Shown here: positions 48,135 to 51,969 of the stretch, piece by piece
Layout of the letters: each line of letters begins with the position of its first letter
How positions within the stretch are numbered: position 1 is the stretch's first letter
Virus genome (UHGV): UHGV-0259576
Reading direction: 5' to 3' (one strand)
DNA: 59,361 bases
Origin: a virus
Notes under the pieces: generated by a model
Told to the model about the DNA's origin: nothing
Databases searched by the model: none
Seen by the model: only the letters and a program-made list of their open reading frames with translations
Position numbers and translations under genes: made by a program

Positions 48135-49244
48135 TTAGAGGTCGATCTCGTCAGGGTCATCGGCACGGCCATACATCTCTTCGAACAGGATCATAGCTGC
48201 GGCGTACACCAGCGTCCCGCGAAGTTCGTTGATCCGGGCCTGTTTAGTCGGCAGCGACCGGGCCTCAATGGTTTTCTTGATAACCTGCTGCGCCAGGCCG
48301 GCGTCGCTGTCCAGCATCTGCGCCATGGTCAGGATCGGCTGCTCGATGAACGGCAGGTCATTGGCATGACGCTCACGGCCTTTACCGTACGCCGCCTGTT
48401 CCAGCGCGCCGAGGAAGGTGCGCAGCAACGGCAGATAGTCATCCCGGTCTTTCTTGTTTTTGAAACGGAACATTACCGACGGGAAGCCGGACTCATCGGC
48501 TTCCATCGTCAATTCGTATTGCTGCTGTTTAGCCGCCTTAACGCCGTACGGCGCGGCCATAGCGGGCGACGTACCGACTTTACGACCCTCCCACGCGAAG
48601 GCCGCCGGTTGGTTATTCGCTTTTATCATCTTCGCGATGTTTTCCATGGCATCCTGGGCCGTACCTCCGGTGATCCTGACTTCGGTTACGGCATCCCAGC
48701 AGCGCTTAACGAGAAAATGGACGGTGGAGATAATCGTATCTGCCGGGGCATCCGGGTCGAGTTTTAATTCTTTCGCGACCGCCTCAATCGTTTTTTCCTG
48801 TTCGACGGCCTGCGCCTTCACCGCACCTACCATGGCCAGCATTTCGTCCCAGCTGCGGCCGGTGACGCCCATCGCTTTCGCCAGCTGGTCACGCATTTGC
48901 GAATCAATGCTGACCAGTTCGTCAGTGGACGGGTTACGCAGCGAAAGGAGTTTATGCCCGTTGAGATGCGCGAACATGAGATAGTTCATCGCGTCGATCA
49001 GCTTACCTTTAGCCAGCGAATCGCGAATGCAGGTGCGGCATTCATGCTCGGTCAGTTCTTTCCACGGTTCGGCTGTCGCCCAGTCTTTACGTTTTTTAGC
49101 GCCGTGGTAAAGGCGCGATAACATTTCATCGAAGACGACGTTTACGGTACGAAGGAATTCCAGGGAAAGGTAGCCCCCAATATTGCCTTCAACACTTTCG
49201 ACGGTGAGGCGCACGGCAGGCACAGTGGTATTAAGATTTGACAT
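48135..49244 (-). CDS. hypothetical protein (369 aa)
   Basis: CGGAGA SD. First gene after conserved promoter copy C. Confidence 0.6.
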   Translation of the reverse strand: MSNLNTTVPAVRLTVESVEGNIGGYLSLEFLRTVNVVFDEMLSRLYHGAKKRKDWATAEPWKELTEHECRTCIRDSLAKGKLIDAMNYLMFAHLNGHKLLSLRNPSTDELVSIDSQMRDQLAKAMGVTGRSWDEMLAMVGAVKAQAVEQEKTIEAVAKELKLDPDAPADTIISTVHFLVKRCWDAVTEVRITGGTAQDAMENIAKMIKANNQPAAFAWEGRKVGTSPAMAAPYGVKAAKQQQYELTMEADESGFPSVMFRFKNKKDRDDYLPLLRTFLGALEQAAYGKGRERHANDLPFIEQPILTMAQMLDSDAGLAQQVIKKTIEARSLPTKQARINELRGTLVYAAAMILFEEMYGRADDPDEIDL

Positions 49245-49279: not shown

Positions 49280-49308
49280 ATACTAGCTGCACACGTTCTG
49301 TGTGTCAA
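49280..49308 (-). promoter_or_regulatory. conserved leftward promoter/operator copy C (TTGACA-N17-TAGTAT; dyad CACACAGAACGTGTG)
   Basis: Same ~32-bp element. Overlaps the stop of the C5-MTase gene. Confidence 0.6.
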
Positions 49309-50489
49309 ACGTTTTCCAGAAAATCTACAGTTCCCACCATAAAGTTTCGGATGAACTGGGCGGCGACTTGCGGGACGATGGCGTTTCCGTATCCGCGCAG
49401 TCGCACCACTCGGGCGGGTACCCCATTAGCCAGCGGGAATGTGCCGGATTCAACGGGCCGGAAATTTCCATCCCTGCATAGCAGCCAGTCAGCATTTGAC
49501 CATGCGCCGTGATCCTGATCGGGAAGTCCGGAACAGGCGTACACTTCTCCATACCCTTCCTGTAACTCCCCGATAGCTGCCCCCTCGATGCCGGCGAGTC
49601 CGGTACCGTCAGCGGTGTCGGGTAGCTGGCGAGACGAACAGCGCCGCCCAGGGTCGTCGACCGATCCGGATGGCCCGCTGCGCCCGCCTCCCCGCGTACC
49701 TGATTGTTGTCGATCGTCGTCACCGTTGGCCATCCCGCCATCCCCGCGATGTCCTGCAGGCGGATATGCTTCTTCGTCCCGTCCTCCCGGAACCATCCCG
49801 CCCGCGCGTAGTCCGGACATGGGCTGCGGTCGTTGCAGGTGTTCGGCGTTGGGTAGGTCGCCAGCTGCGCCGCCACGTCCAGCCGGTCGACGGATAGTTT
49901 GCCATTCCTTATCCGCCCACCCGCGTAGCCGCCTTTCCAGTCCGTCGCTGACGAGGTCGGCCAGGTCGATAGCGCCAAAGAAAAGGCGATCTCTTTTGTG
50001 CGGGGCGCCGACGCTGCACGCTGGCAATACTGCCGATGCGCAGGCGTAGCCTTCGTCTTCCAGCTCAACGAATAGAGCATCGAGCCACAGTTCTTTAATT
50101 GCTGCGCTAACCTGTTCGCCAAAAATAGCTGGAGGTCGCAGCTCTGCGATGAGGTCGAGAAAGGCCGGAGCCAGGTGACGGGAGTCGTCCCGCCCGCCTC
50201 GTTTTCCAGCCACACTAAAAGGCTGGCACGGCGGACTTCCCGTACACACTGGCGCATCTGCCGGCCATCCGGCGAGTTTAAGGGCCAGCGGCCAGCCCCC
50301 GATCCCGGCGAAGAAATGGTGTTGGGTGAAGCCTTTGAGGTCTTCCGGTGCGACTTCTGTGATTGATCGTTCATCGACAATTCCATCTGGCAGGTGGCCG
50401 CGCCTGATTAGTTCACGAAGCCACGCTGCGGTTTTTGGGTCCCACTCGTTAAAATAGTGGAACGGTTTAGAGCCGTTTATGTATGCCAT
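49305..50489 (-). pseudogene. DNA (cytosine-5)-methyltransferase gene read across two frames (two compensating frameshifts: pseudogene, sequencing error, or recoding)
   Basis: Frame A (49305..50489) carries motifs [26 protein letters not shown] and [13 protein letters not shown], then G/R-rich junk, and ends with motif [14 protein letters not shown]. The overlapping frame B ORF (49325..50386) carries the TRD-like WPT(P/S)...D and YPTP repeats and motif IX-like [10 protein letters not shown]. Shifts map near 49977-49985 (AAAGAAAAG tract) and 49388-49405. Confidence 0.6.
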
Positions 50490-50634
50490 TCTGCGCCTTT
50501 TCCGCGCGTTGCTTGAACACGCATTCGACATGGATGGTTCGCCATGACCCGGCATAGCGTTCGTAATGGCCGGCGCCGGCCGGCACATGCTTTTTGCAGT
50601 AGTAGCAGACGCCCGCGTATTTATTTCTGGCCAT
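50467..50634 (-). CDS. small Cys/His-containing protein (55 aa)
   Basis: ATG with GAGGG SD. CYYCKK...H...ECV. Only the last 55 codons of the 160-aa ORF-track entry look real. Confidence 0.35.
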   Translation of the reverse strand: MARNKYAGVCYYCKKHVPAGAGHYERYAGSWRTIHVECVFKQRAEKAQNGIHKRL

Positions 50635-51013
50635 CTTTGACCCTCGCGAAACAGGCATACGGCCCATCGAATTCCGTCGGCGCCGTATACAGGAGAAACC
50701 AGCCGGACCCGTTAAGCGATGTCGGGCGAGGCATCCAGGTACGCAGCACGGAGGCACGCATATCGTCCGTCTTTGCGTTGTCGTACGCCACCCGCAGCGG
50801 CACTTCCAGCGCTCGCGGATAGCCTTCGCCCAGGTAGAAGCCCTCGCACTCCAGGTGGTATGCGTCCAGCAGCGCGTCGAGATTGGACCCATCGTAGTTA
50901 TTACTGGCGTGGAAGAAGACGGGGTGGTGGTACCAGGCGTCCGGGTCATACCCGTCCGCCAGGCTTACCTGCTCGCCAATTACGCCATCGTTATACACGT
51001 TTGGCTTTGGCAT
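50621..51013 (-). CDS. hypothetical protein (130 aa)
   Basis: ATG with GAGGAAGGAAAGA SD. The upstream extension in the ORF track is out-of-frame junk. Confidence 0.5.
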   Translation of the reverse strand: MPKPNVYNDGVIGEQVSLADGYDPDAWYHHPVFFHASNNYDGSNLDALLDAYHLECEGFYLGEGYPRALEVPLRVAYDNAKTDDMRASVLRTWMPRPTSLNGSGWFLLYTAPTEFDGPYACFARVKDGQK

Positions 51014-51255: not shown

Positions 51256-51969
51256 TCATACCTCGTCCCACTGGGCGATCCACTTCTCGCGGATGTCCTG
51301 CATGATGTTGGCCATGGGCAGTCCGATGTCCATGAGCGCTTCCCGGGAGATGTACTCCGGGGCATGTTTTTCTTCGTCTTCCGGGTCGAAGATGACTATC
51401 GCGGCGCCGAAGCCCGCGGACGTGGCGCCAGCGGCATCCTTCTTCGCTTTGAACCATACCGGCGGTTCGAAACCGATGCGCCCTTTGATGAATATGGTGC
51501 GCGTGGCGATGGTATCGGGCCACCATGTTTCAGCCGTTGCCGCTTTGATCACCCAGACCGTACCCGCGCCTTTCTTCCGTTCCTCTTCCGCCTTGGCCAT
51601 GATGTTGACCATGCCGGTTAGCGGCACTTCCACAGCACGGTTACGGCTGTATGGCGGGTTGCCGAAACCCCATACCCGCCGAACGTGGTCGGCGACATCG
51701 TACACTTCCGCCTCGGCCTCCAGTTCCGCCTGTATCCTTTTCAGCCGGCCCGCCCAGTCCTGGCGCAGCGCGTTGTCCTCGGCAGTGTAATAGCGCGGGC
51801 ATTTGGCGTTCTGGCCATCGGTGAACAGGTCCAGCACCAGCGGGCCGAACAGCTTGTCCAGCGCAAAGAACAGCCAGTCCGGTGTCCGCCACTGGTCGCC
51901 TATCTCTTTCAGGTCATGCGCTTCCCGGGCTTTCAGCGCGATGAGGTTGTCAACGTATTCAGAACTCAA
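51256..51969 (-). CDS. phage-type DNA N6-adenine methyltransferase (Dam family) (237 aa)
   Basis: DQWRTPDWLF near the N-terminus, LDLFTDGQNA, DWAGR, catalytic motif IV WGFGNPPYS, GRIGFEP. This is the phage Dam (pfam05869-like) pattern. Confidence 0.85.
   Translation of the reverse strand: MSSEYVDNLIALKAREAHDLKEIGDQWRTPDWLFFALDKLFGPLVLDLFTDGQNAKCPRYYTAEDNALRQDWAGRLKRIQAELEAEAEVYDVADHVRRVWGFGNPPYSRNRAVEVPLTGMVNIMAKAEEERKKGAGTVWVIKAATAETWWPDTIATRTIFIKGRIGFEPPVWFKAKKDAAGATSAGFGAAIVIFDPEDEEKHAPEYISREALMDIGLPMANIMQDIREKWIAQWDEV

Follow-up and report, generated by a model that had tools for sequence, protein, structure and literature searches.

A viral genome of 59,361 nucleotides (nt) (UHGV virus genome UHGV-0259576; hereafter the window, meaning the whole stretch analyzed) carries on its minus strand two overlapping reading frames, gene A and gene B, with B lying entirely inside A. 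We found that both frames are under purifying selection and that the DNA they share is dual coding. The two frames are best described as overlapping genes that are each translated, and most likely they together encode a single C5-cytosine DNA methyltransferase made of two subunits, of the type represented by M.EcoHK31I. A sequence-only reading of the window had described this locus as one methyltransferase split across two reading frames, which would need two changes of frame to yield a functional enzyme.

A nested pair of reading frames in phages and bacteria

The coordinates of both open reading frames (ORFs) and of their parts are collected in Table 1. Relative to A, gene B is shifted to the +1 frame, given that the two start codons are 103 nt apart (50489 − 50386 = 103 = 3 × 34 + 1), and the third frame over the locus is full of stop codons. 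When the codons of B were permuted synonymously in the window sequence alone, frame A remained open in just 1.4% of trials. An overlap of two ORFs this long is well outside what chance would produce.

The window belongs to a Klebsiella phage of the Yonseivirus group (Casjensviridae), and its closest relatives are 92 to 97% identical to it over this region. Both ORFs are intact, with B nested in the +1 frame of A, in all 11 sequenced close relatives (SAKp02, MAG26fr, Soft, Seifer, PIN1, PIN2, N137, RAH2, OU509537, S9a, and Salado), which were sequenced independently and come from at least six countries and several sequencing projects. The lengths of the two frames shift together among close relatives (394/360, 353/319, and 288/253 codons for A and B, counting A from MAYING and B from stop to stop), and length differences in the part of B that encodes its WPTP-type modules (described below) are whole multiples of 3.

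The arrangement extends far beyond this group. With the middle of frame B as the query, tblastn returned 216 phage records at 30 to 45% identity, including N15 gene 58, BcepC6B g33, epsilon15, Pseudomonas phage Haboob, and Rhodobacter phages. The annotated methylase ORF of N15, K1ind3, Haboob, and BcepC6B is one base out of register with the match to B. For a distant sample, we took 80 viral and 80 bacterial contigs encoding a relative of frame B, which gave 89 phage or viral loci and 80 bacterial loci. At 89/89 of the former and 79/80 of the latter, the frame lying one base upstream was uninterrupted over the entire match to B, and the third frame was broken. Hence, the nested pair is present at 168 of 169 loci recovered by the search for B. 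All five methylase motifs were found in the open frame at 76/89 viral and 63/80 bacterial loci, and a few others had incomplete sets. Among the hosts are alpha-, beta-, and gammaproteobacteria, Desulfovibrio, Acidobacteria, and Planctomycetes.

In GenBank, frame A is the annotated frame in most relatives (as the methylase in SAKp02, MAG26fr, Soft, and Seifer), and frame B is annotated as "DNA methyltransferase" in PIN1 and PIN2 (PQ803401 and PQ803402; our L089 and L090). Both frames are annotated in Escherichia coli phage K1ind3 (GU196281; our L006), where B is called "putative Mte8-like protein"; we could not trace the source of the name Mte8 in the literature. A literature search found no published description of the overlap in this phage family. 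One candidate, M.BatI (PMC8936443), turned out to be an unrelated enzyme from a Bacillus prophage.

Selection acts on both frames

Conservation and the distribution of stop codons were assessed family wide over 84 non-identical sequences. In the stop test, synonymous codons were permuted, and the number of stops observed over the 84 loci was compared with the number expected. In the region where only B is conserved, frame A had 0 stops against 211 expected, and the third frame had 407. Frame B had 212 stops (157 expected) upstream of its usual ATG, over A residues 5 to 45; it had 5 (47.5 expected) over A residues 49 to 100, where 82/84 loci are open, and 0 (130 expected) over A residues 101 to 172.

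The positions at which the sequences vary follow the same division. Among close relatives, variable sites fall on the third codon position of A over A residues 1 to 100 (17/40 and 17/60) and on the first position of A, which is the third position of B, over A residues 181 to 220 and 261 to 300 (17/32 and 21/40). They are nearly absent at A residues 101 to 140 (2, 1, and 0 of 40 by codon position). In a set of 59 diverse sequences (<80% identity), the entropy of the A third position was 1.4 to 1.5 bits where A alone is conserved, 1.07 bits over motifs VI to VIII, and 0.54 bits in the 3′ block. Within that block, at A residues 322 to 362, the three codon positions are equally constrained (0.73, 0.46, and 0.54 bits), which is a signature of true dual coding. 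Over the leader of B, the A third-position entropy was 1.36 bits, which indicates that there is little amino acid constraint on the leader. Collectively, these data place both frames under purifying selection, and the sole detectable constraint on the spacer of A, about 145 residues long, is the absence of stop codons.

The start site of frame B

Frame B has an ATG at A codons ~30 to 49 in 81/84 loci. The commonest of these is formed by Asp45 (GAT) and Val46 (GTN) of A, and GAT outnumbers GAC at this codon by 62 to 8. Eight nucleotides upstream of this ATG, the invariant Arg41-Ser42 of A (AGG-AGT) supplies an AGGAG, which is present in 27/61 loci with the Asp45/Val46 ATG versus 0/23 loci without it (p = 4e-5). 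The AGG codon is used for Arg41 in 33% of loci versus 4.4% elsewhere in the domain (p = 1e-13). These biases in the codons of A argue firmly that B is translated from a start codon of its own. In the window, the start of B is likely ATG 50386 or ATG 50374.

Frame A resembles the large domain of a C5-methyltransferase

In C5-methyltransferases, the large domain consists of motifs I to VIII and X, and the small domain consists of the variable region, or target recognition domain (TRD), and motif IX (PMC3404938). The sequence-only reading had assigned motifs I, IV, VI, VIII, and X to frame A; we located each of them in the sequence, and all five are conserved among the 84 homologues. It was also right that the middle of A is rich in G, R, and D; this part is not conserved and is predicted by AlphaFold with low confidence (predicted local distance difference test [pLDDT] of 25 to 35 over residues 198 to 369). 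Conservation of A is confined to residues 1 to 170 and ~322 to 380. The AlphaFold model has an alpha/beta fold at residues 1 to 197 and a C-terminal helix at residues 373 to 393 (pLDDT of ~70).

Profile and structure searches cover the same N-terminal part. PF00145 matches frame A with 67.1 bits (cutoff, 22), over profile positions 64 to 161 only, which is the motif IV to VIII part; TIGR00675 scores 41.6 bits, under its cutoff of 100.65. By hhalign, frame A aligns to M.HhaI residues 2 to 171 (E, 2e-14; probability, 98%), and no alignment was found past M.HhaI residue 171. The best Foldseek matches of the model are a C5-carboxymethyltransferase, M.HhaI, DNMT1, DNMT2, and M.HaeIII (E values down to 3.5e-6 over ~170 columns). 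Frame A belongs to phrog_363 in the PHROGs database, labeled "DNA methyltransferase," and its homologues number more than 7,400 matches. Neither conservation, AlphaFold, nor hhalign revealed a small domain (TRD and motif IX) between motifs VIII and X on the frame A polypeptide. By sequence and model, frame A alone thus looks like the large domain only. Artificial chimeras (A-B-A, and the B C terminus joined to the A C terminus) gained nothing in Pfam, where PF00145 still matched motifs IV to VIII only.

The core of A also seems to be permuted. The N terminus of A (residues 10 to 36) aligns by hhalign to the motif II-III part of M.HhaI, CVYSNEWDKYAQEVYEMNFGEKPEG (E, 0.0013; hand-entered M.HhaI sequence), and the main hhalign alignment omits exactly M.HhaI residues 33 to 68, the part that contains these motifs. 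Together, the N-terminal match and this gap would place motif II/III before motif I, and from this the family of A seems to have a permuted order of core motifs.

Frame B carries WPTP modules and a motif IX-like end

Frame B is present as the sequence-only reading described it, with four WPTP-like repeats and a motif IX-like block. Over the 84 sequences, conservation is found at residues ~84 to 130, at the WPT motifs, and at residues ~288 to 338. The C-terminal block has 11 invariant residues (R291, G296, L299, G301, G310, L312, P314, W319, M321, G322, and W327). AlphaFold predicts residues 84 to 130 as a helix plus hairpin (pLDDT of 73 to 93). By hhalign, the B profile matches M.HhaI at a single place, motif IX, RKLHPRECARVMGYPDSYK (residues 272 to 290; 19 columns), with a weak E of 0.16 against a hand-entered M.HhaI sequence. 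Pfam did not detect a motif IX in this stretch. A Foldseek search with the B model returned noise only, e.g., cyanase (E, 0.25). In PHROGs, frame B belongs to phrog_1008, which is likewise labeled "DNA methyltransferase." Homologues of B called as separate proteins number more than 1,161, and there are 21,648 clusters at 50% identity; the names in B-family clusters are uninformative ("hypothetical," with one "restriction enzyme").

The number of WPTP modules per protein ranges from 1 to 9 over 290 relatives, with 4 in the B of the window, and module content differs even among close relatives. This variability suggests, by analogy with the multispecific methylases of Bacillus phages, that the modules may be exchangeable recognition cassettes. 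Clustering of the modules by BLAST with single linkage gave one cluster, in which no types were separated.

Several frame B relatives on other contigs have unusual architectures. One (P0288) is 572 aa long and has about ten WPTP modules; another (P0243) has a Cys-rich insertion of ~190 residues in the leader. A third (P0276) has a C-terminal extension of ~470 residues, and a fourth (P0241) is fused to a Dam-like domain.

TABLE 1 Features of the nested genes A and B in the window
Feature	Position	Strand	Remarks
Gene A (putative alpha)	49305..50489	−	394-aa C5-cytosine methyltransferase ORF: catalytic large domain, spacer, and motif X segment
Gene B (putative beta)	49325..50386	−	353-aa ORF, whole length inside gene A, +1 frame
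A residues 1-175, conserved catalytic domain	49965..50489	−	Conservation over 84 sequences
A motif II/III-like segment	50421-50459	−	Ahead of motif I
Motif I FFAGIGG	50295-50315	−	Frame A
Motif IV PPCQPFS	50214-50234	−	Frame A
Motif VI FGEQV	50109-50123	−	Frame A; EQV replaces ENV
Motif VIII APHKRDR	49986-50006	−	Frame A; H replaces Q
A residues 176-320, G/R/A/D-rich spacer	49530..49964	−	Nonconserved, stop-free
A residues 330-380, conserved segment including motif X	49350..49502	−	Conservation, low codon-position entropy
Motif X GNAIVPQ	49368-49388	−	Frame A
B residues 1-83, unconserved leader kept open	50138..50386	−	Overlaps A motifs I-IV
B residues 84-130, conserved block	49997..50137	−	Overlaps A motifs VI-VIII; putative alpha anchor
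B residues 140-264, four WPTP-type modules	49595..49969	−	Proposed target recognition cassettes
WPTP module 1	49865-49969	−	Frame B
WPTP module 2	49829-49861	−	Frame B
WPTP module 3	49700-49738	−	Frame B
WPTP module 4	49595-49630	−	Frame B
B residues 288-338, conserved C-terminal block	49373..49525	−	Most conserved part of B
Motif IX-like stretch	49406-49453	−	Inside B C-terminal block
CTTTTCTTT tract (T4CT3), proposed slip site	49977..49985	−	Ordinary coding: RLFFG in A, AFSLA in B

A candidate two-subunit enzyme and its precedents

M.EcoHK31I of E. coli HK31 (Lee, Kam & Shaw 1995) consists of two polypeptides, alpha with motifs I to VIII and X and beta with motif IX, both of which are needed for activity (PMC2836561, PMC3404938). 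By the published description, its beta gene is wholly contained within the alpha gene and is read in another frame, as B lies inside A. The first ~40 N-terminal residues of its beta subunit are dispensable, deletions of at least ~42 residues weaken association with alpha, and internal Met codons can be used as starts (PMC2836561). The dispensable beta N terminus has a parallel in the unconserved leader of B, which is followed by the conserved helix-plus-hairpin block. M.EcoHK31I differs in being part of a restriction-modification system, whereas the gene in the window belongs to a phage and no restriction enzyme was identified adjoining it. Because A resembles the large domain only, B has a weak match to M.HhaI on motif IX, and M.EcoHK31I provides a precedent, we read A as a putative alpha and B as a putative beta. 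By this analogy, we regard the nested pair as a further case, drawn from a very large family, of a rare two-subunit kind known since 1995. The earlier idea of a split methylase thus survives in its parts, with motifs I to VIII and X in A and, in B, the motif IX-like block and repeats that plausibly recognize the target; the mechanism proposed for joining them does not survive (see below).

We propose that beta would bind alpha through B residues 84 to 130, which would act as the anchor, and would thereby contribute the small domain that alpha is missing, with motif IX and the part for target recognition. The alpha spacer would merely tether the motif X helix to the catalytic core, and the array of modules in beta would set the sequence or sequences methylated. 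The complex would methylate phage DNA, probably evading host restriction. We infer that alpha and beta assemble into an active enzyme and that its role is anti-restriction.

Other known systems share single features with the pair. M.AquI of Agmenellum quadruplicatum (Karreman & de Waard 1990) has an alpha subunit with motifs I to VIII and half of the TRD and a beta subunit with the rest of the TRD and motifs IX and X (PMC3404938). It is likewise a naturally split C5-methyltransferase whose two polypeptides must assemble; however, it is split once, inside the variable region, and its subunits are consecutive rather than nested, whereas motif X stays on alpha in the pair described here. The Bacillus phages SPR, phi3T, rho11s, and H2 encode multispecific C5-methyltransferases with tandem recognition modules between motifs VIII and IX, the content of which varies between related phages. 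These enzymes resemble the nested pair in being phage encoded and in having several modules of variable content between VIII and IX. They consist of one polypeptide in one frame, whereas here the modules are off the catalytic chain and multispecificity is a hypothesis; M.H2I is cited in PMC8936443. Outside the methylases, one gene also lies wholly inside another, with products that act jointly, in the Rz/Rz1 spanins of phage lambda. There, Rz1 lies in the +1 frame within Rz. The lambda pair has another function and, in contrast to it, strong conservation of both frames here extends over two long stretches, and the outer gene includes an apparent stop-free spacer. The two products of the nested lambda genes are described as acting as a complex (PMC6139136).

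Several observations weigh against the two-subunit reading. No significant match to B was found in Pfam, NCBIfam, or PDB sequences, by sequence and profile searches, or among PDB folds. Its match to motif IX is short and weak, with a hand-entered template sequence, and the AlphaFold model of B alone is poor (mean pLDDT of 56; predicted template modeling score of 0.25). For A, AlphaFold leaves the conserved segment ahead of motif X unfolded. The lineage of the window lacks the AGGAG/ATG signal and its Shine-Dalgarno match is weak (−3.5 kcal/mol), so that the yield of B in this phage is uncertain. The literature places the TRD of M.EcoHK31I in alpha, whereas here the modules are in beta and the variable region of alpha is unconserved and predicted to be disordered. 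Finally, production of either protein, binding of alpha to beta, and deposition of 5-methylcytosine (m5C) rest here on inference from sequence.

The best-surviving alternative is that B is an unrelated overprinted gene, for example, for anti-defense or regulation, and that A alone is a compact C5-methyltransferase recognizing DNA via its conserved 50-residue C-terminal segment. The dual-coding statistics fit this alternative as well as they fit two subunits. It also draws on the lack of any significant match of B to a methyltransferase profile, PDB sequence, or fold, on a link to motif IX that is a 19-residue alignment with an E of 0.16, and on members of the B family that elsewhere are fused to unrelated domains. 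Under this alternative, though, A would be left without a small domain or motif IX, as its match to M.HhaI ends at residue 171 and AlphaFold predicts its residues 198 to 369 to be unfolded. When B is compared with M.HhaI, the best local match coincides exactly with motif IX, and the modules of B fill exactly the interval from motif VIII to motif X, where the TRD sits. Moreover, B is nested in the +1 frame of A at all but one of the 169 loci recovered by the search for B, and the M.EcoHK31I precedent shares this architecture. We consider an unrelated B unlikely but, because B alone is poorly modeled and has no fold match, leave it a substantial minority share of the probability.

Within the two-subunit reading, a more specific version is conceivable, although we would lean against it at present. 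Beta may be a detachable specificity subunit with a shuffling array of 1 to 9 WPTP cassettes, such that one alpha could methylate several sequences, and the middle of alpha may be a stop-free tether whose length and sequence are dictated by the nested gene.

Frameshifting and error as explanations of the two frames

The sequence-only reading had held that a functional enzyme needs two frame changes. On this model, programmed frameshifts of +1 near 49977-49985 and −1 near 49388-49405 would join motifs I to VIII of A to the TRD and motif IX of B and then to motif X of A, possibly as an on/off switch. The spliced order (I to VIII, TRD-like, IX-like, X) is indeed canonical. In addition, CUU-U at 49985 resembles the prfB +1 slip codon, and rare database proteins (P0382, P0386, P0384, and P0381) fuse A to B just after motif VIII. 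A double frameshift, however, would explain neither the open middle of frame A nor the conservation of B ahead of the first site. Frame A remains open for another 220 codons past the proposed shift site and, across the family, lacks all of the 211 stops expected in the stretch that shifted ribosomes would skip. The B block at 49997-50137, upstream of the site, is conserved as protein, again with none of the 130 stops expected, and many members of the family provide B with its own ATG and AGGAG. Thus, with A kept open, B conserved, and B having a start of its own, two separately translated polypeptides are a better model than a frameshift.

The proposed slip site also argues against slippage, including its use as a switch. 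The tract CTTTTCTTT is found in 6/84 loci and is unchanged among close relatives, and any A or T run of at least 4 at this position is found in 17/84. The residues encoded there depend on lineage (RLFFG, RAYWV, or RLWFV), and the longest homopolymer run at the tract is T4. None of the 11 close relatives examined has a broken frame, and where lengths differ near the tract, which is seldom, they do so by multiples of 3. Comparison with orthologues, which had been suggested as a check, did not reveal an intact single-frame form; the relatives show the same nested pair. We looked for a canonical single-chain subfamily with a chimera as the query. This search gave A-to-B fusion proteins (P0029, P0045, P0078, and P0102, besides the four named above) that are singletons with varied junctions and never return to frame A. 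Judged from their sequences, these fusions look like indels, errors, or mutants. No system is known to use two opposite shifts in one gene. Taken together, we consider the double frameshift very improbable.

Sequencing or homopolymer error and a decaying methylase, which had been offered as further explanations, have nothing in their favor except that the middle of frame A looks like nonsense at first sight, and they can practically be dismissed, given the same frame structure in 11/11 independently sequenced close relatives and, among distant loci, in 89/89 viral and 79/80 bacterial ones, with intact ORFs, indels in multiples of 3, and purifying selection in both frames.

Implications of the nested pair

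GenBank phage records label A, B, or both as "methyltransferase" and leave the overlap unremarked, and the nonsense middle of A may lead a reader or an annotation pipeline to miscall the gene as broken. The family is also a very large natural data set of a fully nested gene pair for the study of overlapping-gene evolution. Some stretches are constrained at every codon position, the codons of the outer gene spell out a ribosome-binding site, and part of the outer gene seems to be selected only against stops.

If the beta modules do set specificity, the family would represent a widespread and adaptable means of restriction evasion for phages of Proteobacteria and other bacteria, as well as a source of new m5C specificities. 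A detachable beta array, if real, would make this a split multispecific anti-restriction methylase whose specificity resides on a subunit of its own, as it does in Type I systems. A naturally split methylase is already a platform for targeted methylation tools (PMC2836561), and a large family of split enzymes would widen that toolbox.

Variants of the locus and its neighborhood

One close relative, on a contig from the Logan assembly of SRR23883189 (L096:1501-3075), has an insertion of ~470 nt in the doubly coded 3′ block, at about 49400-49460 of the window. Frame B reads an HNH endonuclease through the insert, and frame A is open across it too. The 3′ block is present in separate copies, of which the upstream one preserves the B motif and the downstream one preserves the A motif; the overlap thus appears to be partly resolved via duplication. 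The ends of the insert are unlike those of a canonical intein, and with 21 and 30 member sequences for the variant proteins, this is no one-off. That both frames survive the insertion favors the reading of two coding genes. In Klebsiella phage Seifer, an endonuclease VII gene (L004:1617-1988) lies directly downstream of the methylase, whose C terminus is also divergent; neither the window nor the other relatives have this endonuclease gene.

For frame A, an upstream ATG at 50588 would give a longer product of 427 aa. An ORF at 50467-50949 on the minus strand (160 aa, no Pfam match) shares 23 nt with the start of frame A, and the 427-aa version would overlap it far more. A start of the 50489 type is annotated for frame A in most relatives (SAKp02, MAG26fr, and Soft), and in the Seifer record frame A begins 15 codons further upstream.

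Downstream, a promoter-like sequence on the minus strand (49280-49308; TTGACA-17 nt-TAGTAT, 10/12 matches) overlaps the stop codon of frame A and closely precedes the next gene (48135-49244; 369 aa, no Pfam match); one such site is expected by chance in this region. Upstream, ~770 bp from the start codon of frame A and on the same strand, lies a second methyltransferase gene (51256-51969, minus strand), which is of the Dam N6-adenine type (PF05869; E, 6e-33). With this gene and frame A, the phage carries both adenine and cytosine methylase genes.

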